Assembly: GCA_963743305.1 (NCBI GenBank)
Contig: CAVUPH010000032.1
Coordinates: forward strand, 73,890 to 137,889
DNA: 64,000 nucleotides
DNA from: an uncultured delta proteobacterium
GTDB lineage: Bacteria > Desulfobacterota > RBG-13-43-22
Direction: 5' to 3'
Position 1 is the first letter of the stretch; each line of letters opens with the position of its first letter. The notes below the pieces were generated by a model that saw nothing but the letters and a program-made list of their open reading frames with translations, made no database searches and was not told the DNA's origin. Made by a program: the position numbers and the translations under genes. Positions 2,164 through 24,707 of this stretch are shown one piece after another.

Positions 2164-2607
2164 TCATTTTTGCTGCTGACAAAATCCCTCCTGGCGACTT
2201 CTTACCAGATAAGAGCCAACGATCGCCTCAGCCTCAATTTCCACCAGATGGGCCGGACGGGCCAAGGCCGCAACCTCGGCCATGGTGATTACCGGTTTGA
2301 TCTCCTTAAAGAATTCCGAATAGGCCTGCATATATTCAGCGGCCCGCTTGATGTCCGTCACATAAAGGCGCACCCTATAGACTTCCGAGAGCTGGGCCCC
2401 CGCCTTGATTAAAGCCATTTCAATTTTTTGGAAGATGATTTTGGTTTGCCGGTAAGCATCCCCCTCCGCCTCGACCACTCCCTCCGGATTGGTGGTGGTC
2501 GTACCGCCTACAAAAACGAAGTTCCCGACCTTGACGGCCCGGCTGTAACCCGCCTTTTCTTCCAGAGGCGCGCCAGAAGAAAAGTTCTCTCTCTTCAGCA
2601 AATCCAT
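2164..2607 (-). CDS. RidA/YjgF/UK114 family imine/enamine deaminase-like protein
   Basis: GYSRAVKVGNFVFVGGTT and LVEIEAEA motifs. Confidence 0.85.
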   Translation of the reverse strand: MDLLKRENFSSGAPLEEKAGYSRAVKVGNFVFVGGTTTTNPEGVVEAEGDAYRQTKIIFQKIEMALIKAGAQLSEVYRVRLYVTDIKRAAEYMQAYSEFFKEIKPVITMAEVAALARPAHLVEIEAEAIVGSYLVRSRQEGFCQQQK

Positions 2608-2696
2608 AGTCCGATCCTCTCGCTACTTAACCAGGGCAATCCTTAGTGAAAAAACGATCTTTAATCACTTGCAGCCGAAGCAGGCCTGATTTTTAA

Positions 2697-3764
2697 TCAA
2701 AATCCGTACCTTACATAATCATACTCGCAGGGGTTTCCATAGGCAATGTACATAGCATTGTCCTCAAGATCATAGATTACGGAGGCTACCGTCTTAAAGG
2801 GAATGGGCCCATCTTGGTCCACATGCCTGCAAATCGCATTCGGGGCGTTGTTATGGTCTCTTAGAACAGCCATCATCGTTTCGGCGGTAATCGACCCGTA
2901 TTGTCTTTTCATAAGCCTATTGATCCGCTGAATACGAAGATAGCTATCCGCCGCCCCCAAGGCGTAGACCCAATCCCCTTTTTGAAATCTGGGAGTCAAA
3001 TAATGGTTGGAGTGGACCAGGATATCCTCTTCCGGCTGAAGCACATTAAAATCGTCGGGGACTCCTTCTATCCCGATGATGTCCCCCTCCCGGCTGCCCA
3101 AACCATAATACAGCAGGCCCCGTCCCGCTTCACAGAAAACCCCCAGGGCATCGCCGATATTTTTTTGCCGCATCGCTTTGTGGTTAACGAACCCACAAGG
3201 GATATTTAGGCGGTGTTGTTCCTGCGGAGCCAAGGTCAGGTTCATGACTAACCCCAGACCGGCTGAGCTTAACGTCCACTCCAGGACACCCCCGAAGGCC
3301 AGCGTCAATTGCTCCAAACCATTGGCGTGTTTTATTTTCAATAAATTCAAAGGAAAATCAGGGGACCAGTCTATGTTTTGTCCGAGTATCGTCTTCCCGC
3401 CAGGCGTCGCCGTGCCCGTAGCCAGAAAAGAAGTGCATAAGGCGGTTATCTGGTTGTAGTAATCGCCCAATTCAATCATACACCTCAGCGCGAAGACCTC
3501 CTCAAAGCTGACCCCGGCGCCTTCGGCCTGGCCTTTCAACATCTCTATCATCGCTGGATCGAACTTCTCCACGGCCGGGAGAAATTTTTGCGCATTGGCG
3601 ATTATCTGTTCCCGGCTGGCCTTATAAACAAACGTAAAGGCCTCCTCATGCATGGCAATGGACTTAACAATATTCTCTTTGGCGCCGGTCCCATACTGTT
3701 TGCCGATTTCGTAGGGTGTACCGCTACACTCGATCACGCTAAACTTCTTCTTATTTAAGGGCAT
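2697..3764 (-). CDS. C45 family Ntn-hydrolase (acyl-CoA:6-APA acyltransferase-like amidase/acyltransferase)
   Basis: SGTPYEIGKQYG N-terminus, autocatalytic CTSF site, GQNIDW, HSNHY and GNPC motifs. Confidence 0.85.
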   Translation of the reverse strand: MPLNKKKFSVIECSGTPYEIGKQYGTGAKENIVKSIAMHEEAFTFVYKASREQIIANAQKFLPAVEKFDPAMIEMLKGQAEGAGVSFEEVFALRCMIELGDYYNQITALCTSFLATGTATPGGKTILGQNIDWSPDFPLNLLKIKHANGLEQLTLAFGGVLEWTLSSAGLGLVMNLTLAPQEQHRLNIPCGFVNHKAMRQKNIGDALGVFCEAGRGLLYYGLGSREGDIIGIEGVPDDFNVLQPEEDILVHSNHYLTPRFQKGDWVYALGAADSYLRIQRINRLMKRQYGSITAETMMAVLRDHNNAPNAICRHVDQDGPIPFKTVASVIYDLEDNAMYIAYGNPCEYDYVRYGF

Positions 3765-3941
3765 GACTTATCTCTCCTTCTCAGGCGCATCGTCAAATTC
3801 CGTTACCTGAATTTAGCGGTTCATTCCCATCGCAAAAATCCCTAGCCATCTTTTATAATCACTCACCTCCTTATTTTGAGCCAGTTCCAGAGGCTCGACC
3901 CGGGGTATTCTCGCAACCCCAGGGGCCATTTCCGAATATCC

Positions 3942-5384
3942 CTATTCCCCTTGGACCAGACCAGCCACAATCGCACCCGTCCTCTCCAACTCTTCTTTCG
4001 ACCTCGTTCGCTGCAGATGTGCGCCACTGATGAAGAAACCCAGCGCTATGATTAGGACAACGATCAAATCAAAGATCTCCGGGATATGGGGGGGAAAAAA
4101 CATTCCTATGAGGACAAATAATATGGAGCAGGCTCCCAAACCTGGCACAACGCCATGCTTCCACAGGCTATACTCTCCGGGCTGTTTCCTTCGGTAATAA
4201 AAAGTCGAACATACGCAGGCTATGCCGTAGCAGGCCAGAGCAGCAGCCATAGCGATGATCACCCCTACGGCCAAGCACCACTGCAACGGGCCGTTATCCC
4301 CCCCCCACAGGAGGGAACCTGGTATCATCGTGATCAGACCAAACGCGTACACCGTCAAAATCGCTACCCAGGGGGTCCTGAACCTCGAATGAAGTCTGCC
4401 AAATACCCGTGGAAGTATCCCCGCTCGTCCCATGGAATATAAAATTCGGGCCACTCCCATCATGCCCGCCGAGGCCGGCCCGATCGTGCCCAGAGTCACT
4501 ACCCCGATTAAAAGGACAAAGCCGGGGAAGCCCCAAAATTTCTTGCTGAGCGTCACTATAACCGGGTCTTCTATGGTCCAGCCCCTCATTTCGTTCCAGA
4601 AGCCATAGATAGTCATGGTAGTGTAGATAACATAGAAAATAGTACCAATGATAATAGATACAACGAGGCCGAAGCCCACCCCCTTCAGGGGATCCTTGGC
4701 TTCCTCACCCATGGCGGCTACAGCCTCAAAGCCGACAAAAACGACTGTGCCCCATAACAATCCGTAGGCAGCGCCGCTAACCCCTTTCAACCCTTCAAGT
4801 TTTCCCATGAGCGGGAGGAGACTGGTTCCTTCCATCGCTCCGCCGTGGAAGGGTCCGTTAGTCATAACATAGGCCGCCAGGGCGAGCACACAAGCAATCT
4901 GGAACAAAGCGGAGTAAAATAAAAACCTAAAACTCGCCGCAACTCCTATCCAAGCAAGAAAAGCCACAAAAGCAAAACCTACTGTAAAAATAATCCACCA
5001 GGGGACATAAATACCGCACTCGGCCAGGAGCCACCACAGGAACCAGTACCCTAAACCGGTTGCCCCTGCCGAAAGAAAGGCCCACATGGTAAAGCTTAGT
5101 CCGGCAACAACCCAGCCCACTCTGAATCCAATAGCATTGATGGCAAAGGTATAGAAAGATCCGGCAGAGGGGAGTTTCCTGGTAAGCTGAGACATGCTGT
5201 AGGCTACGATGAGCATCATGATGCCGGAGAGGACCATGGTGACCGGTGTCAAAACCCCGGTGAAGTAGATTACAGAACCAATGGCGACCGCCGCCCCAGC
5301 ACCGGGGGTATAAAAAGAAACTCCTGCCCAGGCCAGCATCCACTTGCCTAAAGCCCTGGATTCTAGCCTGTTCAACTTCTTCAT
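3942..5384 (-). CDS. APC-superfamily amino acid/amine permease
   Basis: About 12 hydrophobic segments, PSAGSFY, FVGFEAVAAMGEEAKDP and RILYSMGR..LP..F..LH.RF.TP motifs. RBS AGGAGG before MKKLN. Confidence 0.88.
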   Translation of the reverse strand: MKKLNRLESRALGKWMLAWAGVSFYTPGAGAAVAIGSVIYFTGVLTPVTMVLSGIMMLIVAYSMSQLTRKLPSAGSFYTFAINAIGFRVGWVVAGLSFTMWAFLSAGATGLGYWFLWWLLAECGIYVPWWIIFTVGFAFVAFLAWIGVAASFRFLFYSALFQIACVLALAAYVMTNGPFHGGAMEGTSLLPLMGKLEGLKGVSGAAYGLLWGTVVFVGFEAVAAMGEEAKDPLKGVGFGLVVSIIIGTIFYVIYTTMTIYGFWNEMRGWTIEDPVIVTLSKKFWGFPGFVLLIGVVTLGTIGPASAGMMGVARILYSMGRAGILPRVFGRLHSRFRTPWVAILTVYAFGLITMIPGSLLWGGDNGPLQWCLAVGVIIAMAAALACYGIACVCSTFYYRRKQPGEYSLWKHGVVPGLGACSILFVLIGMFFPPHIPEIFDLIVVLIIALGFFISGAHLQRTRSKEELERTGAIVAGLVQGE

Positions 5385-5514
5385 CCATTTAACCCCTCCT
5401 CTAAAAATCGCGGTGGGCCTATAAGCCTTCAACCGGACAATCTGTGGGCCGGAGCAAAAGCCGTATCCTAACCCCTGCGCAAACCCTATTTCATTAGTCT
5501 GCCCCTGCGCCAAG

Positions 5515-6942
5515 TTACGCGCCATAGCGGTACCGGTAATCATCCGTCAGCACACAGCGTCGGACCCGGGTGAAGGTCCGGGGACGGGTCAGACCCTCCC
5601 CGCCGGTGGCCACATGGAGGGACTTGAAACCCTCCCCGTCCACACCGATCCCGGCCACGGAGGCGCCGTTTTTCACCAGTTGTGAGGCGTCGGCCCGGCT
5701 GGCCAGGCGGGCCATATTGGCCAGGCTGTTGGAGTGAAAAACGATGGTGTGACGCATCCCCTGCTCCGCGGCAATCCCCAGGGTCAGGGCTTCTTCAAAG
5801 TCCCGGCAGCGGACCAGCGGCAGGATGGGCATGATCTGCTCCGTCCAGATGAGGGGGTGTTCGGCGTCGGTCTCCAGGATGGCGATCCGGGTCTCGGACG
5901 GAATGGTCAGTCCGATGGTCCGCTGGAGGATCTCGGCCACCGGCCGGCCGATATAGTCCATGTTGATGACGCTCTGGACCCTCCCGGGACGGATCTCCTT
6001 GAAGATCACCGGCACCAGGGCCCGCCCCTGTTCGGCGGTAAGTTCAAAGGCCCCGTGCTGTTTCAACCGCTCTTTGAGCCGGTCGGCGGCCGAGGCCACC
6101 ACGAAGATCTCCTTTTCGCTGGAACAGGGGGTGCAGTTGCTCAACGAGGCGCCCCGAATGATGCAGCGGGCGGCCCGGTCCAGGTCGGCCGTCTCGTCCA
6201 CGATGACCGGGGGATTGCCGGGTCCCCCGGAGATGACCCGTTTTCCGGTCTGGGCCGCAAATTCCACGACCCGGTGTCCGCCGGTAACCGCGATCATGTC
6301 CACCAGGGGATGGGTCATCAGCATCTGGGCCGTGGGGATCGAGGGTTCCGCCACCGTGGTCAGGCAGTCCGGCGGGCCTCCGGCGGCGACGATGGCCCGA
6401 TTCAGGTCCCGGACCACCCGGGCCGAGATCTCCTTGGTCTTGGGATGGGGGTTGAAAACAACAGAATTCCCGCCGGCCAGCATGAGGATGCTGTTGTGGA
6501 GGATGCCGGGGGCGGCGTTGGTGACGGCGTTGACCGAAGCGATGACCCCGACCGGAATCCTTTCCAGCAGCGTGGTCCCCCGATCGCCGCTGAACACTTC
6601 GGGGGCCAGATCCTCCAGGCCGGGGGCCTGACAGGCCACCTCGATCTTCAACATGGTGCCTTCCACGGCCCCCAATTCGGCTTCGGCCAATTCGAGTTCG
6701 CCGTAGGTCCGCCGGTTGGCCAACCCCACCTGCCTGATGATTTGAATTATTTTTTCCCGCAGTTCCAGGGAAAGCCCGACCAGTGCCGCCTGGGCCTTGA
6801 CCGCCGCCTGAATGGCCTCTTCCATGGTCCCGTACACCCCCCAGGCGGTCTCCGCGGCTGAAGACGTCTGTCCCGAACCGGCGGCCGGGTTCATTTCCGA
6901 CCAGATCAGGGAAACGATCCGTTCAATCTGATTTTTATCCAT
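5515..6942 (-). CDS. CoA-acylating aldehyde dehydrogenase (EutE/PduP family) with N-terminal encapsulation peptide
   Basis: PVGVIAS..TN, VTGG, GGPGNPPVIVDETAD, catalytic C-x-x-EKE, EQIMP, GEG.T..RTFTR.RRC. N-terminal helix DKNQIERIVSLIWSEM. Confidence 0.9.
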   Translation of the reverse strand: MDKNQIERIVSLIWSEMNPAAGSGQTSSAAETAWGVYGTMEEAIQAAVKAQAALVGLSLELREKIIQIIRQVGLANRRTYGELELAEAELGAVEGTMLKIEVACQAPGLEDLAPEVFSGDRGTTLLERIPVGVIASVNAVTNAAPGILHNSILMLAGGNSVVFNPHPKTKEISARVVRDLNRAIVAAGGPPDCLTTVAEPSIPTAQMLMTHPLVDMIAVTGGHRVVEFAAQTGKRVISGGPGNPPVIVDETADLDRAARCIIRGASLSNCTPCSSEKEIFVVASAADRLKERLKQHGAFELTAEQGRALVPVIFKEIRPGRVQSVINMDYIGRPVAEILQRTIGLTIPSETRIAILETDAEHPLIWTEQIMPILPLVRCRDFEEALTLGIAAEQGMRHTIVFHSNSLANMARLASRADASQLVKNGASVAGIGVDGEGFKSLHVATGGEGLTRPRTFTRVRRCVLTDDYRYRYGA

Positions 6943-6978
6943 GGCTATTCCAGTCCCCAATTATCCGTTTGATCCGGC

Positions 6979-8433
6979 TCAAGCCGTAAGACCATAGCGG
7001 TAGCGAAAGTCATCGGTCAGGACACAGCGCCGCACCAGGGTGAAGACCCGGGGCCGGGTGTGCCCTTCGCCGTTGGTGGCGATGTGAAAGGAGACGAACC
7101 CCTCCCCGGCGACGCCGACGCTGGCCAGTCCGCAGGAGCCGTTTTTGACGAAGGCCGCGCACTTGGCGCGTGCGGCCATTTTTCGAATGGTCTCCAGGTT
7201 GTTGGAGTGGATGGCCATGGTGTGGCCGTTGCCCTGTTCCGCGGCGATGGCCCGGTCGATGGCCTCCCCCGCGTCCCGGCAGCGAACCAGGGGGATGACC
7301 GGCATGATCTGCTCGGTCCAGACCAGGGGGTGATCGGGCCCCGTTTCCAGGATCACGATCTTGGCCTCCGGACCCACCGTCAGGCCGATGGCCTGGAGGA
7401 TGAAGGAAGGTGGCTTGCCGATGTACTCCATGTTGATCACCCCCGGCCGGCCGGGCTCCCGGATTTCTTTGAAGATACGCGGGAGCAGTTCCTGCCCCTG
7501 CGGTACGGTGATTTCATAGGCCCCGTACCGCTTCAACAGTTCCTTGAAGCGGTCGGCCACGGCGTCCACCACAAAAAGCTCCTTCTCGCTGGCGCAGGCC
7601 ATGCAGTTCGAGAAGGAGGCCCCTTCGATCACACAGCGGGCGGCCCGGTCCAGATCGGCTGTTTCGTCGACCACCACCGGCGGGTTGCCGGGGCCGCCGG
7701 CGATCAGCCGCTTACCGGTCTGGGCGGCAAAAGCCACCACCCCGTGCCCGCCGGTGACGGCGATCAGCCGGATCAGGGGATGGGTCATGAGCTGCTGGGC
7801 CGAAGGCACCGAGGGTTCCTCCAGGCAACAGATGCAGTTGGCCGGCCCCCCGGCCTCCTGGATGGCCCGATTTAGGTCCCGCACCACCCGGGCCGCCACG
7901 TTCCTGGTCTTGGGGTGGGGGTTGTTGACCACCGTGTTTCCCCCGGCCAGCATCATGATGGCGTTGAACAGGATGGTGGGAGCACCGTTGGTCACCGGGT
8001 TCACCGAGGCGATGACTCCCACCGGGATCCTTTCGATGATGGTTACACCCTTGTCTCCGGCGAAGACCTCCGGGATCAGGTCCTCCATCCCCAGGACCTC
8101 ACAGGCGGAAAGATTTTTTTTGATATTGTCTTCCGCAGAACCTAAGCCGGTCTCCAAATATTCCATTTGCCCGTAGGTTTCGGCCCCGGTCCGCCCGACC
8201 CGGCGTATAACCTGCAGGATTTCCTCCCGCTTCCGCAGCGGCAAGGCCATCAATTCTTTTTGCGCCCGGGCCGCCGCTTGAATACAGCTTTCAATGTCCG
8301 GAAAGACCCCGTCTCTTGCCGCCAAGGGGAACGATTCCGGAGCAGATTCTTCGGATACCTCGAACCCCTCGCTTTCCAGGCGACGAATGACCCGGGAAAC
8401 GATCTGTTCAAGCCGCTCTTTAGCTAAAGCCAT
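6979..8433 (-). CDS. Second CoA-acylating aldehyde dehydrogenase (EutE/PduP family) with encapsulation peptide
   Basis: Same motifs as 5515-6942 (NPVTN, GGPGNPPVVVDETAD, CASEKE). N-terminal helix KERLEQIVSRVIRRL. Confidence 0.9.
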   Translation of the reverse strand: MALAKERLEQIVSRVIRRLESEGFEVSEESAPESFPLAARDGVFPDIESCIQAAARAQKELMALPLRKREEILQVIRRVGRTGAETYGQMEYLETGLGSAEDNIKKNLSACEVLGMEDLIPEVFAGDKGVTIIERIPVGVIASVNPVTNGAPTILFNAIMMLAGGNTVVNNPHPKTRNVAARVVRDLNRAIQEAGGPANCICCLEEPSVPSAQQLMTHPLIRLIAVTGGHGVVAFAAQTGKRLIAGGPGNPPVVVDETADLDRAARCVIEGASFSNCMACASEKELFVVDAVADRFKELLKRYGAYEITVPQGQELLPRIFKEIREPGRPGVINMEYIGKPPSFILQAIGLTVGPEAKIVILETGPDHPLVWTEQIMPVIPLVRCRDAGEAIDRAIAAEQGNGHTMAIHSNNLETIRKMAARAKCAAFVKNGSCGLASVGVAGEGFVSFHIATNGEGHTRPRVFTLVRRCVLTDDFRYRYGLTA

Positions 8434-8538: not shown

Positions 8539-9534
8539 CTAGTTTTTACCTAAACCGGGCTTACTTCTCTTCTTTTTATCCTCCCCCCGTGAGAAACCTT
8601 CCCCGGCAGATAGCAGGGTATAATATTTCGCCTCCAGTGGGTTGCCGGTTATGGGGGAATCAGTATCCAGTGAATAAAAAACCGGCCGCTTTCTTATTCC
8701 ATCCTCAATCTGGCTCAGACGTTTCAAGGTAGCCGTTTTGTCCACGAAGGCAATCTCGTGGATTAAAGCCCCCAACAGGGTCAGGATATGGGAAAAAGGA
8801 TCTACAAAAGACAATCCCTCCACATCCACGATGAGGTATTGGTCGGAAAGGGGAATAATCGGCGATTTGGGGGTATCGCTGATCCCAACGACAAAGGCAC
8901 GACACTTTTTGGCGAATTCGATCAACTCGATGGCCTGATTGGCATAGCGGGGGAAAGCGAAGACCACTAGAAGCAGGGAAGAACCATGGAGGGCAATATG
9001 GTCGAAGTTCTCCCAGGAAAGCTGGGTATCCAGACGCACTCCCGGTCGGATCTTTTTCAGGAGAAAGCCAAAATAGGAAGCCAGAACGGAGGAAGCCCGG
9101 TAGCCGGCTACGAGAACGCGTTCACTCCGGAAAATCTTGCGGGCCAGATTTTTAATTTCCTGTTCCGAAATGGAATGAATCATATGTTCCAGATTCCGCA
9201 GGGTGTTTTGATGATAGGCCTTCATGGGAGTCAGATTGTCGGTCCGTTTGGTGGACTTCAACATACGCTCCACACTGGTCAATTCAATATGGAGCAGCCC
9301 CTTAACGTAGACTTCAAATTCCTCATACCCGGAAAATCCGAGATCCAGAACAAAGCGAGTGACGGTAGGTTCGCTCACCCGGCATTCCCTAGCGATTTCT
9401 TTGGCTTTGATCAAAAAAAGCTTTTTATAATCGTTGATGATGAAATCCGCGATCCGTTTCTTCTTAGGCGACAGTCCGGGATAAATATTGATGATGCGAT
9501 CGAAGAGTTCTTTTTTTGCAGAATTGGTTTTCAT
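8539..9534 (-). CDS. RpiR/MurR/HexR-family transcriptional regulator (HTH + SIS)
   Basis: LSPKKKRIADFI, A..C.VSEPTVTRFV..LGFSGY.EF HTH. SIS motifs G.R.S, FPRY, ISDT..SPI. Confidence 0.9.
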   Translation of the reverse strand: MKTNSAKKELFDRIINIYPGLSPKKKRIADFIINDYKKLFLIKAKEIARECRVSEPTVTRFVLDLGFSGYEEFEVYVKGLLHIELTSVERMLKSTKRTDNLTPMKAYHQNTLRNLEHMIHSISEQEIKNLARKIFRSERVLVAGYRASSVLASYFGFLLKKIRPGVRLDTQLSWENFDHIALHGSSLLLVVFAFPRYANQAIELIEFAKKCRAFVVGISDTPKSPIIPLSDQYLIVDVEGLSFVDPFSHILTLLGALIHEIAFVDKTATLKRLSQIEDGIRKRPVFYSLDTDSPITGNPLEAKYYTLLSAGEGFSRGEDKKKRSKPGLGKN

Positions 9535-9554
9535 CAAAGATTCGGGGAAAAGGG

Positions 9555-10172
9555 TTAGTGGTCCCGACCCACCAAGGTGGCCAGAGCTTCCTCGGCGGCT
9601 GCCTTCGCGGCCTGAATGTTGGAGAGGGTTCCGGATAGATAGACCCGTCCGCTGGCTCCGAAGACGCTGGCATGAACCAGTTTGATATCCGCCGCCTTCT
9701 CCGCCTCATTGGCCGCGAATCCGGCATAGCCGGCCGGCACGACTTCAAGGATATACAGGGCGTCATCGGCCAAAATCATGTTGGCGTCCCGAAACCGGTT
9801 GACGATGGGGGTCATGAAAGGGTCGATCCGATCGATGGTTTCGGCCGCCAGTATCTTGGGCTTCAACCGGTCGGTCTCCTTCATTCCCAGATAATTCAAA
9901 ACCACCTCCCCGGCTTCCCGGACATCGGCCGGAGAATCTCCGTGGACTTCCAGCATGCCATAGGTCCGTTCCACCACCATGGCCCCCGGTCGAACCTTGG
10001 CCTTTTTAAGCACCACATCTGTCAGGGAATTGATCTCGATCCCCGGGGCAATTTCCAGAAAAAGACCCGATTGACCGGCGACCGGGTAGTAGCCTCGCGC
10101 CGTGCTGCTGATGTAACCGACGAATTGCTTCTGCAGTTGATCAATAAAGGCAAAGGCTCGCAGTTCAATCAT
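9555..10172 (-). CDS. BMC-T(dp) double-stacking trimeric shell protein (CcmP/CsoS1D type)
   Basis: ELRAFAFIDQLQ, ARGYYP, EIAPGIEIN, VVER.YG.LEVH, PAGYA..AANEAEKAA, FGASGRVYLSG. Confidence 0.9.
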   Translation of the reverse strand: MIELRAFAFIDQLQKQFVGYISSTARGYYPVAGQSGLFLEIAPGIEINSLTDVVLKKAKVRPGAMVVERTYGMLEVHGDSPADVREAGEVVLNYLGMKETDRLKPKILAAETIDRIDPFMTPIVNRFRDANMILADDALYILEVVPAGYAGFAANEAEKAADIKLVHASVFGASGRVYLSGTLSNIQAAKAAAEEALATLVGRDH

Positions 10173-12777: not shown

Positions 12778-12789
12778 GGGTGGATCTCC

Positions 12790-13411: not shown

Positions 13412-13433
13412 GGTGTGAAAAACGTCTCCCTCA

Positions 13434-14834: not shown

Positions 14835-14838
14835 GACC

Positions 14839-16185: not shown

Positions 16186-16198
16186 CACGCTGCTTTTC

Positions 16199-17001: not shown

Positions 17002-17283
17002 TTATTTTTCGGCCTTGGGGAGAATGAACTCGATATCCCCGTGGGGTCTGGGGATAACGTGGACCGACAGGAGCTCGCCCACCCTTTTGGCCGCCGCCCC
17101 GCCGGCATCGGTAGCGGCTTTGACCGCGCCCACATCCCCCCGGACAAAAATCGTCACCAAACCGCCGCCGGCATGCTCTTTTCCCACCATCTTGACGTTG
17201 GCCGCTTTCACCATGGCATCGGCCGCCTCAATGGCACCGACCAATCCCCGGGTTTCCACCATACCTAATGCTTGTTCACCCAT
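17002..17283 (-). CDS. BMC-H hexameric shell protein (PduA/EutM-like)
   Basis: [26 protein letters not shown]...GDVGAVKAA...HVIPRPH. Confidence 0.96.
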
Positions 17284-17308: not shown

Positions 17309-17812
17309 TTATCGTTTCAATCGAATCGCCCTGGCCTTCATGGACCAGGCACGAGGTACTTCAATGGTTACCACGGCGGTTTGATCCATCCGCTCCGTCT
17401 TACGGACCGCGGTGGCCGGAGCCTCTCCTAAAACGGCCCCGGACCGATCCAAAACCACCACCAGCTCCCCCTTTTCCGGGAGCGGCAGAAACTCATGGGG
17501 CAGGGTCACCGCCGCCTTATCATCCGGCAGGCTTTCATCGACGATGAAAATGGCCTGACCCGGACAAATGGGCACGCAGGACTGACAGCCAATGCATTTA
17601 TCTTCATCCAGGTGCGGGAGGTTGGTAATATCCCTCCCCACCGAGATGGCTTCGACCCGGCAACTGGCCTCGCAGGGGTTGCAGGGAATATGTTCGGTGC
17701 ACTCGATCACGGCCACCGGCCCCCGCCGCCGCCGGGCTTCGGTAGGGATACCGGGACTGTCCCTTAATTCTTCTTCCGATAGAAAGCCTGTTTGCGATAA
17801 TCCTGGGGCCAT
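17309..17812 (-). CDS. 2x[4Fe-4S] ferredoxin subunit of a multi-subunit flavin amine/proline-type dehydrogenase
   Basis: CTEHIPCNPCEASC and CIGCQSCVPICPGQAI. C-terminal P.EFLPLP..G..V...DR.G domain. Confidence 0.85.
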   Translation of the reverse strand: MAPGLSQTGFLSEEELRDSPGIPTEARRRRGPVAVIECTEHIPCNPCEASCRVEAISVGRDITNLPHLDEDKCIGCQSCVPICPGQAIFIVDESLPDDKAAVTLPHEFLPLPEKGELVVVLDRSGAVLGEAPATAVRKTERMDQTAVVTIEVPRAWSMKARAIRLKR

Positions 17813-17817: not shown

Positions 17818-18906
17818 TTACCTTTCCATCAGGGCGTAAAGTTGTTCCTTGTTCTGCCGGCGAGCTTCGCCATAGGGTCCGCTGCGCAAACCGGACATGC
17901 TTTCCAACTGCTCCGCCCGCTGGTGTTCAAAGGCGTCGGTATCCAAGTATCCCAGGCTGTGGGCCGCGGCCAATCCGGCAATGCGCCCCTCAATAATCGC
18001 CGTGCTGGCTTCCTCAATTCCGGAGACATCCCCCGCCACGTAAATCCCCGGAAGGGAAGTTTGCTGGTCGAGATCATGGATCGGCACATTCCCTCCCAAA
18101 GCGGAAAGCGAGGCCATTTTACAGCCGGCCATCCGCAAAAGCTGGGTCATCGGGTTGAGGCCCACGGCAATGCAGATGGTATCCACTTCCAGTTCCTTTT
18201 CCGTTCCGGCAACGGGTTGCCACTTGGAATCGACCTCAACGATCGTAGCCCCGATCACTCGGTCACTCCCCCGGGCCTCCTTGATGGTATGGGACAGGAA
18301 AAAAGGGACCCCGTAGCGGGCCACCTTGGCCGCGTGGACCCCATACCCGGAAATCCGAGGGGCGGCGTCGATGACTGCGGCTATCTGGCATCCGGCTTGA
18401 AGCAGTTGAAAACTGACCACGACCCCCACATTGCCGGAACCCACCATGAGAATGTTGTTCCCCGGCCGAACGCCATGAAGGTTGGCCATGGTCTGGGCCG
18501 CGCCGGCTCCGATTACCCCGGGAAGGGTCCACCCAGGGAAAGGGATCATATTTTCCGAAGCGCCGGTGGCCACCAGAACCCGCTCCGCCTTGACCTCTTC
18601 AATCCGGTCCTGAATCATGACATTCATGGTCCGGTTCTCATAAATCCCCAGGACCACTGCCTTCAGAAGGACTTCCACGCCAAGTTGGCGGGCCTCGTCC
18701 AACAGGCTTTGGCCGATATGAAATCCCCGTTCCTGGGCGCGGTGTTCTTTGGAACCGAAAAACTTATGGATCTGTTTAAAGAGCTGGCCGCCCGGCCGTT
18801 CGTTTTCATCAAAAACCACCACTTCGACCCCGCAGCGGGCCGCCTCGATCGCGGCGGAAAGGCCGGCCGGTCCCGCCCCAATACAAACCAGTTCGCATCG
18901 TCTCAT
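17818..18906 (-). CDS. NAD(P)/FAD-dependent oxidoreductase (HcnB / OoxA / sarcosine oxidase alpha N-terminal-like)
   Basis: IGAGPAGLSAA, GGQLFKQIHKFFGS, ATGASE..PFPGWTLPGV, GSGNVG, GIYVAGD..GIEEA. No GcvT/THF domain. Confidence 0.88.
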   Translation of the reverse strand: MRRCELVCIGAGPAGLSAAIEAARCGVEVVVFDENERPGGQLFKQIHKFFGSKEHRAQERGFHIGQSLLDEARQLGVEVLLKAVVLGIYENRTMNVMIQDRIEEVKAERVLVATGASENMIPFPGWTLPGVIGAGAAQTMANLHGVRPGNNILMVGSGNVGVVVSFQLLQAGCQIAAVIDAAPRISGYGVHAAKVARYGVPFFLSHTIKEARGSDRVIGATIVEVDSKWQPVAGTEKELEVDTICIAVGLNPMTQLLRMAGCKMASLSALGGNVPIHDLDQQTSLPGIYVAGDVSGIEEASTAIIEGRIAGLAAAHSLGYLDTDAFEHQRAEQLESMSGLRSGPYGEARRQNKEQLYALMER

Positions 18907-19226
18907 TTTTTCCCCGCCGGCGGCTCCGGTCCATGGCCGTGCTGCGTTTGGATTGACATACCCGCTTGAAGCGGTTCCACACAGGTCCGCACGTTGGGCC
19001 TTCCATCCACGACCATGATGCAGTCGGTGCATCGGCCAATGGCACAAAACATCCCCCGGGGTTCTTTTCGTTTCGCCGTGTAACGGTGGATGATAACCCC
19101 GTTGCTCCGGAGGGCCATGGCGATGGGTTCCCCCGCGAAACCCTCCATCGGTTGTTGATCAAAGGTAAACCGGACCTTTTCACCCTTTTCAAAAGTCCCC
19201 AGAATGGGATGGTCCTCGATGCGCAT
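18903..19226 (-). CDS. [2Fe-2S] (Fer2_4) subunit, HcnA / sarcosine oxidase alpha N-terminus-like
   Basis: GEPIAMAL...G, PRGMFCAIGRCTDC.M.VDG.PNVRTC. Overlaps the next start (ATGA). Confidence 0.88.
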   Translation of the reverse strand: MRIEDHPILGTFEKGEKVRFTFDQQPMEGFAGEPIAMALRSNGVIIHRYTAKRKEPRGMFCAIGRCTDCIMVVDGRPNVRTCVEPLQAGMSIQTQHGHGPEPPAGKK

Positions 19227-19370: not shown

Positions 19371-20694
19371 CTAACAAAATCCGAACATTTCCGTAAAAGT
19401 GAAGTTGGTCCCCACCAGGGGTATCCCGGTCATGGCGCAGGCCTCCAGAGTCAGGGAGCGGATGTCTTCCCGTTCCAGATTGGCCAGCTTGGTCTTCCCG
19501 GCGGCCTTGGCCAGGAGAACGGTCTCGTAAGTCATGGCCTGAATATAGTTGGCCACCCGTTGCGCCGCCGCCTCGATGTCCAGGTTCTTTCGCAATTCCG
19601 GGTCCTGGGTTCCGATCCCCCAGGGGCATTTTCCCTCGTGGCAGCGGAGGCAGACCACGCAGCCCATGGCGATCATGGCCCCGGTTCCGATGGCCACGGC
19701 ATCGGCGCCGATGGCCAAGGCCTTGGCTACATCGGCCCCGTCTTTGATCCCGCCGGAGACGATCAGACTCACCTCATCTTTGACGCCCATCTCCTCCAGG
19801 GCCCGGACGGCCTGGACCAGGGCCGGCAGGGTGGGGATCCCCAGGTGTTTGGAAGCCATGACCGGGGCGGCCCCGGTGCCGCCTTCGGAACCGTCGATGA
19901 CGACGCCGTCGGCGCCGGTCTTGACGGCGATCTTGACGTCTTCCTTAACCCGGCCGGCGGCCATCTTGATGAAGATGGGGATCTGATAGTCGGTCACGTC
20001 CCGCAGTTCCTGGATCTTCAAGACCATATCGTCGGCCCCGAAAATATCCCCATGGCGGGGATGACTGTGCAGGTCAATACCTTCCGGCAACTGCCGGAAT
20101 TGCGCAATTTCCTTGGTGATTTTACTGCCCATCAGGTGTCCGGAAAGACCGGGTTTGGCGCCGATGCCGGTGATCAGCTCCAGGGCATCAGCGGCCTCGA
20201 TGTTGGTCAGGGAAAAGCCCATCCGGCTGGGGGTGATCTGCACCACCTGTTTATAGGAATTCGCTCGTTCTTCGGGAAGCAACCCGCCTTCTCCATTGTT
20301 GATCGAGGTCCCCACGATCTGGGTGGACTTGGCCAGAGCGATTTTGGCCTCTTTGCTCAAGGCCCCATAAGACATGCCGGAAATCATGATCGGCGTTTCA
20401 ATGACCAGGGGTTTTTTGGCGAAGCGAGCCCCCAGGACCGTCCGGGTCTGGCAGTCCTCCCGGTAGGTGTCCACCGACAAACGGGAGAGCTGGGCCGCCA
20501 GGATGAGCAGGTCGTCGAAATTGGGATAGCGGGCTGGTGGAACCACATCCCCGTATCCGGTGCTTACCCGTATAGGCCTTGTATTTGACCTCGGCCACCG
20601 TTTCCGCATTCCAGACCCCGCGCTGGACATCCTTGGCCTTGGGCACCTTCCCTTTTTCCTCCTGGTATTGCTTATATTCTTTTTCCTCGGACAT
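19371..20694 (-). CDS. FMN-binding glutamate synthase domain protein (GlxD/MgsC/GltB2-like) (+1 frameshift near 20532)
   Basis: FDDL, MSYGALSKEAK, NGEGG, GAKPG..GHL...KI, DGSEGGTGA, SGGIKDGADVAKALAIGAD, CVVCLRCHEGKCPWGIGTQ [3Fe-4S] motif. Confidence 0.88.
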
Positions 20695-20696
20695 GG

Positions 20697-21401
20697 CTAC
20701 CTCCCCGGCTGAACCTGAAGATGTTGGGGTTTGAAGAGGTAATATTCGTGGCGGCCCAGGACCTTCGGAACCACACTCCGGAAGTGGTCCACCCCCTGCT
20801 CCAGACCATACTGCTTGAAAAGGCCTTCCAGCGCCTTTTTTTCTTCATCGGAAATGGGGATGATCGAGGCGTTTCCGCCCAGTTTGTCTTCCACCGCGGG
20901 GTCCAGGGTGTGAATGATGCCGTTGTACATGGACTCCCCAATAACCGGCCCCATTTCCCCGAGGACGATGATCCGTCCCCCCAGGGTCATGTATCCGGTC
21001 CACCGGCCCACACTGCCGCAAATGATGAGGTTGCCGCCTTTCATCCCCAGGCCGGCCCGGGTGCCGCTGTTTCCTTTGACCAGGATGGTACCCCCGAGCA
21101 TGGAAGGGCCGCAGTTGCTGCCGGTGTTCATCTCGACGATGATCTCCCCGGCCTTCATGTTGTCACCGGTGTACCAGCCGGTATTCCCCTTGACGTGCAG
21201 GGTCGGACCTTCCAGGAACCCACCGGTGTAGAAACCGGTGCTGCCCTCGACGGTGACGGTGCCTTCCCCTTTTAAGGCTGTAGCGAAATTGTGGACCGAG
21301 TGGGAATTCTTGATAACGATTTCCCGGTCCTGCTTAATGGTTTCCCTCAGTTTTCGGTTTACATCCCAACTGGTCATCCCGGCAATGTCTAAATTGACCA
21401 T
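20697..21401 (-). CDS. GXGXG beta-helix glutamate synthase domain protein (GlxC/MgsB/GltB3-like)
   Basis: Repeated V.G..G...G..M.GG.I.V.G units. Confidence 0.85.
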   Translation of the reverse strand: MVNLDIAGMTSWDVNRKLRETIKQDREIVIKNSHSVHNFATALKGEGTVTVEGSTGFYTGGFLEGPTLHVKGNTGWYTGDNMKAGEIIVEMNTGSNCGPSMLGGTILVKGNSGTRAGLGMKGGNLIICGSVGRWTGYMTLGGRIIVLGEMGPVIGESMYNGIIHTLDPAVEDKLGGNASIIPISDEEKKALEGLFKQYGLEQGVDHFRSVVPKVLGRHEYYLFKPQHLQVQPGR

Positions 21402-22288
21402 ACCTTTACTCCTCCTGGCTCCATCTCGGTGGCATACACATCCGAGACGATCGGGGTTAAGCAGATTTGCTCCGACCCAAATAGTACGGTCCCGTCTTCC
21501 CTTTCAAAGTAGAGCACCGGTTTAAAACCCAACCAATCCCGAAAGGCCCCTATCTGTTTATCCGTGCTGGCCAGGATGGTGAACACCCCGTCAAAGGCCT
21601 CCAGGGCCTGGTGCATGGCCCCTTCCAGGTCCTGTCCTTTTTCTTTCATCTGGTACGCGAGATACTGGGCCGCCAGCTCGGAGTCATTATTGGTCTTGAA
21701 GCGGACCCCCTTATTTTCCAGACTCCGCCGCATCTTGAAATAGTTGGTAAACTGGCCGTTATGGACTATAGCCAATTCCGGATAGAGGTAGGAGATAAAA
21801 GGATGGGCGAAGTTGATGTTTTCCACCGTCTCGGTAGCCAGGCGCACATGCCCGATACCGTGGGTGCAGGTTCCTACGCGGATCTCATGGGTGCGCTGCA
21901 GGTCTTCGGCCGAACCCTGGTCTTTGTAGACCTTCAAGTGTTGGCCCAGGGAGTGCACACATAATTGGGGATGACTGTCTATGTCCCAATGGAGCCGGCC
22001 GATCTGGGAAGGATCCATGTCGATGGATCCTTCATAAAAGCTGAAGATCCCCTCGCCATGGTAGCTGCGGGCCTTACGGACTTTGCCGAACATGGCGATG
22101 ATCTCCTCCAGCTCCCGCTCGTAACAGGGGTCGGTCAGGGAGGCTCGGATCTGGATGTCTTCCCGTTGCTCATACAGCGCCACCCCCGTCGCGTCCCGGC
22201 CGCGGTGCTCCAATTCCTTGAGCATATTGACCAGGTCCTGGGCCAGGGTGGGAGAATTTCTCCCGATTATTCCTGCTATCCCGCACAT
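21389..22288 (-). CDS. Class II (Ntn) glutamine amidotransferase (GlxB/MgsA/GltB1-like)
   Basis: MCGIAG with Cys nucleophile, HRG.DA.G, GIGHVRLATE, AHPF, VHNGQFTNY, DSE, RD.LG.KP. Confidence 0.88.
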   Translation of the reverse strand: MCGIAGIIGRNSPTLAQDLVNMLKELEHRGRDATGVALYEQREDIQIRASLTDPCYERELEEIIAMFGKVRKARSYHGEGIFSFYEGSIDMDPSQIGRLHWDIDSHPQLCVHSLGQHLKVYKDQGSAEDLQRTHEIRVGTCTHGIGHVRLATETVENINFAHPFISYLYPELAIVHNGQFTNYFKMRRSLENKGVRFKTNNDSELAAQYLAYQMKEKGQDLEGAMHQALEAFDGVFTILASTDKQIGAFRDWLGFKPVLYFEREDGTVLFGSEQICLTPIVSDVYATEMEPGGVKVWSI

Positions 22289-22353: not shown

Positions 22354-23694
22354 TTAAAAATGAAAGGAATACTCATTGAACTCCCAGTCGGTTACGGCCT
22401 TGCGAAACCGTTCAATTTCATGCTCTTTGACGGCTACAAAGGCCTGGATCAGTTCGGGTCCCAAGGCCGAACAGAGGGTTTTATCGGCCTTCAACTCGGC
22501 CAGGGCATCCCGGAGATAAAGGGGAACCGTGGGATAGGTGCCCGGTTCGGCTCCGTAGATATCCCCTTCGATGGGCCGGCCCGGATCTATTTTGTTTTCA
22601 ATGCCGTCCAGGCCGGCGGCAAAGGCCGCGGCATAAACCAAATAGGGATTGGCCGAAGCGCAGGGGGCGCGGTTTTCAATCCGGGTCGCCGGCCCTCGTT
22701 CCCCGGGGATCCGGCAGTAGACCGTCCGGTTGTCCAGGCCCCAGACGATAAAATAGGGGGCGAAGGCATTGGGCACGTAACGTTTATAGGAATTGATCGT
22801 GGGGGCCAGCAGGGCCGACATCCCTTTGGCATGGGCCATCAGCCCCCCTAGGAACCAGCGCATGAGGTCAGACATCCCCCAATGCGGACTTTCAGGATCA
22901 TGGAACAGGTTTTTCCGCGAAGCCGGATCGCTCAACGAGAGATGGATATGAAAACCGTTTCCCCCACTTTCGGTCTTGGGACGGGCCATGAAGGTCAACA
23001 GCAGATCATTTTGAAAGGCAATTTCTTTGCATATGTATTTAAAGGTAAAAGTCTGATCAGCCACATCCATGGCCTGAGCGTACTTCCAGTTGATCTCGAA
23101 TTGCCCGGGAAAAAACTCGTGGTTGCAATAGATGATCTCCAACCCCAGTTCCAAAAAGGTATTCTGCAACTTTCGCAAGAGTCCGAGACGATCCACGCGG
23201 GGATTGGCCGTATAGACGTTGGAAAGGTTGGGGTTATACGACCCGCCCACCCCGGCGGCGTCCTGATTGAAGACAAAGAACTCCAACTCGGCGGCAGCCA
23301 CCGGCCGTAAATTTTTTTCCTCGTATTTTTTTAAGATCCCCTGGAGTACGTTTCGGGGATCGACCGGGTGGGGCACTCCATCCCGCTGGGCACTGGCGAT
23401 GAAACGGGCGGTCCCCTCCAGGTGGGGCAACACGGCAAAGGTCTGGGGATCGGGGATCAGGGTCATATCACGCCATTCGATTTCCGGCCCCATGCCGGTC
23501 CCCATGGCTACATCGTTGGCCAGATCGATGGCATAGGTGGCCTGGGCGAAGTTGATGCCCTCCTGGAGGACCTCTTCCAATCGCCGGGCGGGAGCCAGTT
23601 TACTGCGGCAGATCCCGAACAAATCCGGGAAATCAATTCGGAGGGTGTCGATCTGTTGAGCCTTGATTATTTCCTTAATTTCATTGAGCTCCAT
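22354..23694 (-). CDS. Glutamine synthetase-like gamma-glutamylamide ligase (GlnT/GmaS/PuuA/IpuC-like)
   Basis: ELEFF, HE..PGQFE, TFMARP, GNGFHIH.S, NSYKR, WG.DNR, RIENR, ANPYL. Lacks the DGSS and GYEAP ammonium-site signatures. Confidence 0.85.
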   Translation of the reverse strand: MELNEIKEIIKAQQIDTLRIDFPDLFGICRSKLAPARRLEEVLQEGINFAQATYAIDLANDVAMGTGMGPEIEWRDMTLIPDPQTFAVLPHLEGTARFIASAQRDGVPHPVDPRNVLQGILKKYEEKNLRPVAAAELEFFVFNQDAAGVGGSYNPNLSNVYTANPRVDRLGLLRKLQNTFLELGLEIIYCNHEFFPGQFEINWKYAQAMDVADQTFTFKYICKEIAFQNDLLLTFMARPKTESGGNGFHIHLSLSDPASRKNLFHDPESPHWGMSDLMRWFLGGLMAHAKGMSALLAPTINSYKRYVPNAFAPYFIVWGLDNRTVYCRIPGERGPATRIENRAPCASANPYLVYAAAFAAGLDGIENKIDPGRPIEGDIYGAEPGTYPTVPLYLRDALAELKADKTLCSALGPELIQAFVAVKEHEIERFRKAVTDWEFNEYSFHF

Positions 23695-23732: not shown

Positions 23733-23749
23733 GTTGTAAACATTACAAC
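23733..23749. promoter_or_regulatory. Palindromic operator GTTGTAA-ACA-TTACAAC (TTGT-N7-ACAA, HexR/RpiR-type)
   Basis: Perfect 7-bp inverted repeat between the promoter and the first gene of the BMC operon. Confidence 0.6.
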
Positions 23750-23763
23750 AATTTTTTGAAAAG

Positions 23764-23793
23764 ATATTATTTTTATTTCATAATAACTGTCAA
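23764..23793 (-). promoter_or_regulatory. Sigma70-type promoter of the BMC operon
   Basis: Minus strand TTGACA (23793-23788), 18-nt spacer, TAATAT (23769-23764), in an AT-rich intergenic region. Confidence 0.55.
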
Positions 23794-23996
23794 GCGAAAA
23801 ATTACTTCAACGGCTTTATTTATTTTTATTTCATAATTTTTAGTAAAATTAGTCTCTTAGAAATAATGACCGCTGCCTGAAGTCTTTCTTCGCAAAAAAA
23901 TGTTGATTTATTTCATTATCTTTAAATAATGTTACGAGGGTTTTCGTCCCAATTGTTTTCCGACCCTCTTGAAACCGCAGGCCGGGGGTGAAAAAA

Positions 23997-24707
23997 ATGA
24001 AAATACATTTAATTGAACACGATCCCGCGCACCTTCCAACCAACATCGAACCCTGGGCCCGGGAAAGGGGGCATTCCCTTTCTAAAACCGAAATCTTTCG
24101 AGGGGAGCCTTTCCCAGCAGCGGATACTTATGATTGGCTCATGGTCATGGGCGGATCGCAACATGCCTGGGAAGAACCCCTCTATCCCTGGCTGGTGTCT
24201 GAGAAGGATGGGATCGCCCAGGCCCTAGCCCGGAAGAAGATCATCCTGGGTATTTGTTTCGGGGCTCAGCTTTTAGCCGAGGCCCTCGGCGGAAAAGTGT
24301 TCCCCAACCGGCAGAAAGAAATTGGCTGGTATCCGGTGGTTCAGACCCCGGAGGGCCGATCCTCCGTGTTTTTTCAGGATATCCCCGGGCGTTTCACCAG
24401 CTTTCACTGGCACAGCGATCATTTCGATCTTCCGGCCGGCGCGGTGCGCTTGGCCTTCAACGACTGCTCGACCAACCAGGCCTTCATCCACCCGGAATAT
24501 CCTCTACTGGTACTCCAATTCCATCCCGAGTACACCCGGGAAATGGTCAGGCATTACGCGCGAGAATTCGGGAACGAGTGGCCTCCGGGACCTTTTGTGG
24601 CGGGGAAGGATCAGACCCTGGCTCAAGCCGAAGCGGTCCCGGACACCTACGGGCTGATGGAAAAAATCCTGGACAACATGGTTAAGGCCTTTGGACAAAC
24701 CCGTTAA
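23997..24707 (+). CDS. Class I glutamine amidotransferase-like hydrolase (possible gamma-glutamylamide hydrolase)
   Basis: VMGG, LGICFGAQLLA, EIGW, FHWH.D.F, QFHPE (Cys-His-Glu triad). Confidence 0.88.
   Translation: MKIHLIEHDPAHLPTNIEPWARERGHSLSKTEIFRGEPFPAADTYDWLMVMGGSQHAWEEPLYPWLVSEKDGIAQALARKKIILGICFGAQLLAEALGGKVFPNRQKEIGWYPVVQTPEGRSSVFFQDIPGRFTSFHWHSDHFDLPAGAVRLAFNDCSTNQAFIHPEYPLLVLQFHPEYTREMVRHYAREFGNEWPPGPFVAGKDQTLAQAEAVPDTYGLMEKILDNMVKAFGQTR

Follow-up and report, generated by a model that had tools for sequence, protein, structure and literature searches.

The window analysed here, a stretch of 64,000 nucleotides from contig CAVUPH010000032.1 of an uncultured delta proteobacterium (assembly GCA_963743305.1), carries a bacterial microcompartment (BMC) locus in which shell genes stand among genes for a glutamine synthetase (GS)-like ligase, a three-subunit synthase, a flavin dehydrogenase and two acylating aldehyde dehydrogenases (ALDHs). 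The locus comprised 24 co-directional, closely packed open reading frames (ORFs) on the minus strand (positions 2164–23694), with a largest intergenic gap of 177 nt. The gene labels were backed by Pfam and NCBIfam scans, save that of a flavoprotein, which was recognised by its fold, and all 24 genes stood in the order listed in a preliminary description of this DNA. That description had placed the locus at 2164–24707; the start was kept, whereas the last stretch belonged to a divergent class-I glutamine amidotransferase gene on the plus strand (23988–24707). All five PF00936 matches of the 4.9-Mb assembly (90% complete) fell inside the locus, the sole BMC locus found in this genome. On balance, we consider it somewhat probable that the locus encodes an intact metabolosome of the type MIC6 (short for ‘metabolosome with incomplete core 6’ in the catalogue of BMC types, PMC8217296), which would ligate an amine, form an N-substituted glutamate, oxidise it inside the shell and trap the product as acyl-CoA.

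The first gene of the run encoded the GS-like, putative gamma-glutamyl-amine ligase (446 aa; 22354–23694; PF00120, E 4e-102). It scored below the cut-off of every NCBIfam GS, GlnT and PuuA equivalog; on the model for gamma-glutamylputrescine synthetase it had 265 bits. In an alignment with E. coli GlnA and PuuA, a second GS of the same genome (contig C10) and the rhizobial and Acinetobacter GlnT proteins, the metal, ATP and glutamate residues of the ligase were kept (E129, E131, E212, E220, H269, H271, R321, R339, R344, E357 and R359), and all five ammonium-site residues were replaced (D50 by A, S53 by T, Y179 by V, N264 by G and E327 by F). The same five sites read P, V, V, A and Y in PuuA and A, A, C, T and W in rhizobial GlnT, to which the ligase was 33% identical; the C10 enzyme retained all five canonical residues. 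Ligase orthologues from loci without shell genes had lost the ammonium site likewise. With all five residues replaced, a role as a true GS was rejected, judging from the alignment, and the gamma-glutamylamide-type activity that had been proposed for the protein agrees with an ammonium-site loss like that of PuuA and GlnT/GMAS.

Behind the ligase lay a class-II (Ntn) glutamine-amidotransferase subunit resembling GlxB (21389–22288; GATase_6/7, beginning MCGIAG), a GlxC-like GXGXG subunit (20697–21401; PF01493, E 4e-22) and a GlxD-like subunit with an FMN glutamate-synthase domain and an Fe-S motif (19371–20630; PF01645, E 2e-106). The first two were each 30% identical to their rhizobial counterparts, and the GlxB-like subunit kept the catalytic Cys1. 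The GlxD-like subunit was 50% identical to its counterpart in Rhizobium leguminosarum and 47% to that of an Acinetobacter plasmid, versus 30% to the other Glu_synthase protein of the genome (C10). The corresponding cluster on R. leguminosarum plasmid pRLN2 is annotated as soxBDAG, glxA, glxBCD, glnT, purU and a dimethylamine monooxygenase; we take the soxBDAG-glxBCD-glnT cluster to be the N-methylglutamate locus. The reading of the first four genes as a glnT-glxBCD module was therefore borne out by the domains, Cys1 and the GlxD identity, but not by the Fe-S motif, which is unlike the aerobic GlxD. The CxxCxxCxxxxCP of the window protein sits on the 3Fe-4S cysteines of GltB (aligned with chains 7mfm and 2vdc), and its four cysteines were kept in the window protein and in five of five aligned anaerobe orthologues, whereas the Rhizobium and Acinetobacter proteins have an insertion at this site and no cysteine. 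Because the FMN subunit keeps a motif like that of glutamate synthase (GOGAT), the synthase is probably redox-coupled. We infer that the anaerobic enzyme may exchange electrons with a partner as GOGAT does, with a gamma-glutamyl-amide as the amide donor. The possibility that these proteins act as plain GS and GOGAT, raised in the preliminary description, fails for the ligase with its lost ammonium site, and a GOGAT-like role retains some plausibility for the FMN subunit.

The dehydrogenase module was encoded in two blocks. The first held a 2Fe-2S subunit (Fer2_4; 18903–19226; PF13510, E 4e-28), a FAD/NAD(P) oxidoreductase (Pyr_redox_2, PyrR; 17818–18906 with the ATG start at 18906; PF07992, E 2e-37) and a 4Fe-4S ferredoxin (Fd; 17309–17812; Fer4 families). 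The second held a BFD/SoxA-A3 2Fe-2S subunit with a long N-terminal extension (11489–12148; PF04324 and PF17806 at residues 138–218) and a DAO-family flavin dehydrogenase with a C-terminal tail of four cysteines (10183–11388; PF01266, E 6e-75). On the NCBIfam soxA model (TIGR01372), the Fer2, PyrR and BFD proteins corresponded to positions 10–100, 167–496 (E 2e-43) and 523–596. The best PDB chain for the DAO subunit was 1y56_B (E 1e-52), which we take to be the beta subunit of the Pyrococcus L-proline dehydrogenase, followed by SoxB and glycine oxidase. The ferredoxin matched the C-terminal ~165 aa of a fused PyrR-Fd protein found in shell-less loci, and that fusion resembled a permuted GltD (Pyr_redox_2 with 2×4Fe-4S).

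Two ALDH genes (6979–8433 and 5515–6960) followed at the other end of the run, behind a gene for an RpiR/SIS transcription regulator (8539–9537; HTH_6, SIS) that is kept beside the locus in relatives. The ALDHs scored 502 and 506 bits, respectively, on NF011927 (cut-off 403), and the best PDB chains for the first of them, 5jfl and 4c3s, are titled ‘Aldehyde dehydrogenase’ (E 8e-94). Both belong to the acylating subfamily, with 38–44 bits on the PuuC model against its cut-off of 850. An APC-family permease (3942–5543; AA_permease) and a C45 Ntn acyltransferase/hydrolase (2697–3764; NF040521, 191 bits, cut-off 85) came next, and a RidA-family imine deaminase (2164–2607; PF01042, E 3e-25) closed the run.

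Shell genes of three classes occupied the middle of the locus. They encoded a BMC-H hexamer (17002–17283; PF00936, E 1e-28; 133.3 bits on the EutM model NF012018, at its cut-off), a GrpU-like protein of the Fe-S type (16561–16866; partial PF00936 match), a BMC-P pentamer (16199–16474; PF03319, E 7e-29), a PduT-like tandem BMC protein with one frameshift (14282–14834; TIGR02526 on both halves) and two CcmP-like BMC-Tdp trimers. The first trimer (12159–12764) reached 216 bits on NF053796 over profile positions 21–205 of 213, with no Pfam match at E 1e-3; the second (9555–10172) reached 234 bits over positions 3–205 of 213. The G-x-CPQH motif of the GrpU-like protein was kept in 16 of 16 orthologues and the pore-loop cysteine of PduT in 12 of 12. 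From work on GrpU and PduT we take these residues to be Fe-S ligands, so that the shell is predicted to include two Fe-S-type proteins. Among the shell genes also lay a PduS-like flavin/Fe-S electron-transfer protein with three frameshifts (14839–16188; Complex1_51K, Fer4_17 and RnfC_N on ORF pieces), an EutJ-like actin-fold ATPase (13434–14282; NF011660, 287 bits, cut-off 182) and the flavoprotein, with one frameshift (12790–13411). The flavoprotein gave no Pfam match, even at E up to 5, and no NCBIfam match. An AlphaFold2 (AF2) model of its orthologue in locus L006, based on a 10-sequence alignment, had a mean predicted local distance difference test score of 77.6, and its top Foldseek matches were the HFCD FMN proteins TvaF, EpiD, UbiX and CoaBC (best E 3.4e-7). 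The name given to the gene in the preliminary description is thus supported by the predicted fold alone.

The locus had been put forward as a new metabolosome, but it fits a type that is already catalogued though uncharacterised. The catalogue lists MIC2–7 among the BMC types of unknown function with no obvious signature enzyme (Sutter et al. 2021, PMC8217296). The HMM (hidden Markov model) names in its Supplementary Data 6 include HMM01266_1_mic6 (DAO) and HMM04324_1_mic6 (Fer2_BFD), and its MIC6 tree entries from a Desulfobacteraceae metagenome-assembled genome (MAG) include a grpU-like protein of 99 aa (B1H13_00910, ‘grpU-like1’) and a ccmP-like Tdp protein of 205 aa (B1H13_00940); a GS HMM is named for MIC2, not MIC6 (PMC8217296). 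The window likewise has DAO and Fer2_BFD genes among its shell genes, and the six locus tags that separate the two B1H13 entries match the window order GrpU, BMC-P, PduS, PduT, EutJ, flavoprotein and BMC-Tdp. The HMM names, together with the two tree entries, make it probable that the locus is of the functionally orphan MIC6 type. Within the literature searched, whose coverage left most subscription journals outside, no functional proposal for this BMC type was found, and as far as that search reaches the chemistry proposed here is unpublished.

EutB had no match in the 90%-complete genome, which agrees with the earlier observation that an ethanolamine ammonia-lyase was missing. Nor did the locus contain a glycyl-radical enzyme, as had also been remarked; one PFL-like glycyl-radical enzyme (800-aa frame) was encoded on a separate contig of the assembly (G000 contig C6, 94595–96520) with no shell gene nearby. 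Pfam detected no phosphotransacylase, alcohol dehydrogenase, aminotransferase or kinase within the locus. PduL-type phosphotransacylase (PF06130) had no match anywhere in the 90%-complete genome; the negative for Pta (PF01515) covers the locus.

A search with the PyrR subunit gave 559 confirmed relatives, from which 80 loci in species-representative genomes were kept and mapped with tblastn. Shell genes were present in 15 of the 80 loci, and 14 of these 15 also had GlxBCD-module genes, so the synteny between shell and glnT-glxBCD genes that the preliminary description had proposed to check is conserved. Nine loci, all from Desulfobacterota MAGs, kept the window order from ligase through shell genes to DAO, and one more (L022) was rearranged. 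The 15 shell loci were labelled Desulfobacterales, Desulfobacteraceae, Syntrophobacteraceae, Desulfatiglandales or ‘delta proteobacterium’, with a single exception labelled Gammaproteobacteria. Four further short contigs with 74–75% identity ended ahead of the shell region. The same enzymes occurred without shell genes in 11 loci, from Syntrophomonas, Acetobacterium, Desulfosporosinus, Anaeromicropila, other Bacillota and one Spirochaetaceae, in the order (APC permease)-(GATase I)-ligase-GlxB-GlxC-GlxD-Fer2-PyrR::Fd-BFD-DAO-RidA. Distant APC permeases flank these operons, and RidA ends most of them. Because the shell-less operon holds the same enzymes, the ligase, synthase and dehydrogenase appear to form one functional unit into which the shell genes were inserted. 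The other 50 loci, mostly from gut or rumen Firmicutes and Treponema, had only Fer2-PyrR::Fd-BFD-DAO with or without RidA. The stand-alone operon RidA-Fer2-PyrR::Fd-BFD-DAO (L009, L024–L080) was widespread and was seen in cultured species, among them Ruminococcus callidus, Blautia schinkii, Butyricicoccus porcorum and Pseudobutyrivibrio xylanivorans. Its occurrence on its own in many genomes suggests that the dehydrogenase module is an autonomous amine or amino-acid dehydrogenase.

The core module was thus conserved together with the shell, whereas not every gene counted in the operon by the preliminary description belongs to that core. Downstream of RpiR, four relatives had one or two ALDHs (a second copy in one of the four) followed by RidA in all four, and a TRAP transporter came after RidA in three. 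The APC permease and the C45 hydrolase were not found in this position in the four relatives and are particular to this genome. The best solved relative of the TRAP binding protein was a lactate binder, at only E 2e-23, too distant a match to point to a substrate. Of 400 other genomes of the phylum, sampled evenly, four encoded a DAO protein with 68–87% identity, each with BMC domains within ~7 kb, and two genomes of the same genus had no such DAO; the trait is rare and patchy in the phylum. In a quick maximum-likelihood tree of 62 DAO proteins, rooted at the midpoint and built without rows of less than 330 aa or loci that have no DAO, all 11 BMC-type proteins grouped in a single clade (SH-aLRT 100). 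This clade sat on a long branch, with the GlxBCD-linked forms as its closest neighbours, and the next larger starred set united the 11 BMC rows with six ‘long’ rows.

The BMC versions of several proteins differed from their shell-less relatives at their ends. The BFD protein had an N-terminal extension of ~130 aa in 11 of 11 BMC-type loci and in 0 of 52 shell-less proteins, which have at most 41 residues ahead of the domain. The extension was made up of a small domain of 45 aa, a linker rich in Pro, Ala and Glu, and an amphipathic helix (EELERIVDRVVERFKALKG) resembling an encapsulation peptide (EP); like an 80-aa ORF beyond RidA (1897–2139), it had no Pfam match at E up to 5. The small domain was homologous to the C-terminal domain of the flavoprotein (hhalign 96.2%, E 2e-9), a relation that was found by profile-profile comparison and missed by an HMM of the BFD N-domain alone. 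The EP pattern matched 10 of the 11 BMC forms and none of the 52 others, although it was derived from the same BMC sequences and is partly circular. N-terminal EP-like amphipathic helices were also seen on ALDH1, ALDH2 and the flavoprotein, and those of the ALDHs were conserved in orthologues. The ligase, GlxB, GlxC, GlxD and Fer2 proteins had no extension. Putative encapsulation signals would therefore be carried only by BFD, the flavoprotein and the ALDHs, and only in their BMC versions. The DAO subunit had a 30-aa C-terminal tail with four cysteines in 10 of 11 BMC-type proteins versus 0 of 51 others, and PyrR and Fd had a gene each in all 11 BMC-type loci versus a joint one in 51 of 52 shell-less loci.

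These genes suggest the following route. An imported amino compound would be joined to the gamma-carboxyl group of glutamate by the ligase at the expense of ATP. The GlxBCD-like synthase would hydrolyse the amide and move the amine onto 2-oxoglutarate, and its FMN subunit, wired through the Fe-S site, would reduce the product to an N-substituted glutamate. Both enzymes would be cytosolic, with DAO/BFD and the ALDHs inside the shell. There, the SoxB/proline-dehydrogenase-like flavoenzyme and BFD would oxidise the N–C bond on the side of the substituent, RidA would aid hydrolysis of the imine to glutamate and an aldehyde, and the two encapsulated ALDHs would convert the aldehyde to acyl-CoA. Electrons could leave through BFD, the four-cysteine tail of the dehydrogenase, PduS, PduT, the GrpU-like protein, the ferredoxin and the Fer2 and Pyr_redox subunits; with neither PduL nor an alcohol dehydrogenase at hand, NAD+ would therefore be recycled via PduS and PduT. 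A nearby glutamate dehydrogenase (GDH) would free the nitrogen and regenerate 2-oxoglutarate. Gene content, synteny, ligase signatures and BMC-specific extensions are observed here, and every chemical step, the shell contents and the electron route are inferred from them. The route modifies the one sketched in the preliminary description, of which the gene logic (ligase, GlxBCD-type synthase, SoxA/SoxB-like dehydrogenase, acylating ALDH) was supported, while its chemistry and substrate remain conjectural. So amended, it is the simplest account in which each conserved gene has a role.

Several observations weigh against this route. The locus has no phosphotransacylase or alcohol dehydrogenase for recycling of CoA and NAD+, and no PduL match was found in the 90%-complete genome. 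The dehydrogenase module is common without ligase or GlxBCD (41 ‘short’ loci with a DAO gene) and can work on a free substrate, and RidA would fit a free imino-acid product equally well. The folate-binding C-terminal half of SoxA (GCV_T), SoxD and SoxG were not found in the locus with Pfam or NCBIfam. The GOGAT-type Fe-S motif sets the GlxD-like subunit apart from a simple copy of N-methylglutamate synthase, and the subunit could act GOGAT-like. The same caution applies to the assignment to MIC6 by HMM names and two tree entries, to the quick DAO tree and to the partly circular EP pattern. Finally, transporters vary between genomes (APC here, TRAP in three of four relatives), and because of this the substrate may differ, or be amino acid-like rather than a simple alkylamine. 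Amidases of three families occur nearby (C45 and Amidohydro_3 here, Amidohydro_3 in genome G003 and Amidase in locus L008); together, the transporters, amidases and GDH hint at an amino-acid-like or amide-derived amine over methylamine.

A more ambitious version, which we think rather improbable, would make the metabolosome electron-wired. Electrons of the luminal dehydrogenase would pass through the four-cysteine tail, BFD and PduT/GrpU-like proteins to the cytosolic ferredoxin and Pyr_redox subunit and on to the Fe-S GlxBCD that had made the substrate, giving, in concert with the ATP-dependent ligase, an internally redox-balanced amine-to-aldehyde ‘transamination’ across the shell that is independent of pyridoxal phosphate and B12. 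If so, the split of PyrR-Fd in BMC loci would mark the place of the shell in the electron path.

Among the alternatives, a Puu-like route fared best, and we regard it as unlikely. Here the ligase would gamma-glutamylate a diamine or omega-amino compound at one amino group, DAO would oxidise the other end inside the shell as PuuB does, yielding a gamma-glutamyl-aminoaldehyde, the ALDHs would form a CoA thioester, and a class-I amidotransferase-like protein would free glutamate as PuuD does. The PuuA-like pocket of the ligase and its score on the gamma-glutamylputrescine synthetase model speak for such a route, as does the membership of PuuB in the DAO family. Pathways of this kind come with APC permeases, of which PuuP is one, and a GATase-I/Peptidase_C26 gene adjoins the ligase both here and in Syntrophomonas-type loci. 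However, that gene accompanied only four of the eight shell-less loci that show the ligase, and it was adjacent in one of four BMC relatives examined. Moreover, the ALDHs are CoA-acylating, unlike PuuC, and the strictly co-conserved GlxBCD would be left without a role.

Direct oxidation, which we find doubtful, would let the encapsulated dehydrogenase act on a free amine or amino acid (proline, sarcosine, a D-amino acid or an opine-like compound), with RidA hydrolysing the imine and the ligase and Fe-S GlxBCD recapturing amine or nitrogen and electrons in the cytosol in the manner of GOGAT. It draws on the dehydrogenase module standing alone with RidA in most fetched loci, on the structural match to 1y56_B, presumably an L-proline dehydrogenase, on the GltB-type cysteines of the FMN subunit, on the GltD-like PyrR-Fd fusion and on the GDH genes adjacent in several loci. 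Yet the ligase has none of the ammonium-site residues of an ammonia-fixing GS, and the genome has a separate GS with those residues as well as a separate Glu_synthase homologue. The FMN subunit is far closer to GlxD than to GltB, and a keto-acid product would need neither acylating ALDHs nor a shell.

The reading of the locus as an intact metabolosome also has to account for five single-base frame breaks within 2.8 kb (12790–16188), three in PduS and one each in PduT and the flavoprotein. Logan contigs of four public runs were aligned on 12700–16300 (depth 2–5, with sister strains possible), and they were one base shorter at 13011/13014, 14665, 15590, 15695 and 15782/15784, that is, at all five break points. 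Two of the sites lie in G-runs (G6 at ~15781–15786 and G8 at ~15591–15602). Dropping one base per site restored exactly the lengths of the relatives, 448 aa for PduS (intact in loci L006 and L010) and 183 aa for PduT; the frame-corrected flavoprotein stopped at 12790–12792, without the C-terminal small domain of its orthologues. The remaining 21 genes were full length. Because near-identical contigs were one base shorter at all five sites, the frameshifts are probably assembly errors and not decay. Another GS gene of the same assembly, on contig C10, also appeared split, and the assembly may hold indel errors more widely. That the locus is a decaying pseudogene cluster with real frameshifts is very improbable: the clustering of the breaks and the truncated flavoprotein would suit it, but the shorter public contigs (shallow, and possibly from related strains), and the 21 full-length genes argue against it, and the split GS gene elsewhere points to an indel problem across the assembly. 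The habitat labels of the runs were soil, wetland and freshwater sediment; these runs had small sequence shares, and the labels were not used as evidence.

The genes beyond the ligase may be linked to the locus. The divergent class-I glutamine amidotransferase-like gene (PF00117, Peptidase_C26; PuuD-like fold class) had counterparts adjoining the ligase in four Syntrophomonas-type shell-less loci and adjoining RidA in L091, and was not universal. It was followed on the plus strand by Pfam-assigned genes for a GDH (26641–27927), an Amidohydro_3 amidase (28181–29884) and a Liv-type ABC transporter (29959–34707) with a binding protein, two permeases and two ATPases. GDH also adjoined the dehydrogenase module in two short-module loci (L009 and L033). 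The amidase and ABC transporter block (28181–34707) recurred in the same order, with 55–80% identity, in the Desulfatiglandales genome G003 (L093, 3611–9978), which has the same BMC type, on the opposite side of the locus. In three BMC-type loci, a molybdopterin oxidoreductase and a 4Fe-4S partner lay directly upstream of the ligase (L006, 265–4960; L011, 2436–5071; L012, 2228–4869), and the upstream region of L006 also had an aldehyde:ferredoxin oxidoreductase; these enzymes may offer another way out for the aldehyde or the electrons. A WD40 beta-propeller protein was encoded between the APC permease and GATase-I in a Syntrophomonas shell-less operon (L017, 3389–4432). At the RidA end, the locus was adjoined by a DUF1302 protein (305–1873); the Syntrophobacteraceae locus L094 had DUF1329, DUF1302 and MMPL/RND genes there (3381–6659), with an identity between the two DUF1302 proteins of only 24%. 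Farther away, genes clustered at 41985–47882 encoded an HMGL-like carboxyltransferase-type protein with a fused PDC sensor-like domain, a carboxyl transferase and a methylmalonyl-CoA mutase. They resembled a block of the methylmalonyl-CoA (propionate/succinate) pathway and might serve as a sink for propionyl-CoA. The end of the window (60001–64000) had a GC content of 0.71–0.72, versus ~0.48–0.65 elsewhere, and its ORFs at 61152–62156 and 63525–63923 had no Pfam match at E 1e-10; this part may be of foreign origin, or may have been mis-joined, the contamination of the MAG being 5.7%.

If the proposed route is correct, an orphan BMC type would gain a testable function, and flavin-dependent C–N oxidation would join the few aldehyde-forming signature reactions of metabolosomes. 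The gamma-glutamyl and N-substituted-glutamate chemistry of aerobic methylotrophs would then have an anaerobic, Fe-S-wired counterpart, one that is widespread in Firmicutes in shell-less form and became encapsulated a single time, in Desulfobacterota. The pair of shell-less and encapsulated operons is a natural experiment, with targeting peptides added, a fusion split and a cysteine tail gained, and may be useful for the design of synthetic compartments.

The system can be placed among known ones by the parts it shares with each. With GS/GOGAT it shares the 3Fe-4S cysteines of the FMN domain but not D50, S53, Y179 and E327 of GS. E. coli Puu (PuuA, PuuB, PuuC, PuuD and PuuP) has a ligase without an ammonium site, a DAO oxidase, an ALDH, a GATase-I hydrolase and an APC permease in common with it, whereas it has no GlxBCD and no shell and its ALDH is non-acylating. 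The EUT and RMM/AAUM metabolosomes share the shell, the acylating ALDH that traps an amine-derived aldehyde, and the accessories EutJ, PduS and PduT; in the window, by contrast, no B12-dependent lyase (EutB) was found, the locus has no aminotransferase, kinase, PduL or alcohol dehydrogenase, and the aldehyde-forming step would fall to a flavin dehydrogenase. The DAO complex can be likened to the HcnABC/opine oxidase group and to the heteromeric L-proline dehydrogenase of the Pyrococcus type, with a DAO subunit like 1y56_B and, here, Pyr_redox_2, 2Fe-2S and ferredoxin subunits as partners; the BMC type differs from the latter in its four-cysteine tail, its EP-bearing BFD and its link to the ligase and GlxBCD. 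Compared with the aerobic N-methylglutamate pathway (gmaS/glnT, mgsABC/glxBCD, mgdABCD/soxBDAG), the window system lies in a BMC locus of an apparent anaerobe, and no Amt transporter was found. Its FMN subunit has the CxxCxxCxxxxCP motif that rhizobial GlxD lacks, and instead of SoxBDAG with a full-length, folate-binding alpha subunit it has a split N-terminal half of SoxA (positions ~10–600 in three proteins) and a ferredoxin. Both have lost the ammonium site of the ligase, and both follow the same three-part logic of a ligase, a three-subunit synthase and a SoxAB-type dehydrogenase.

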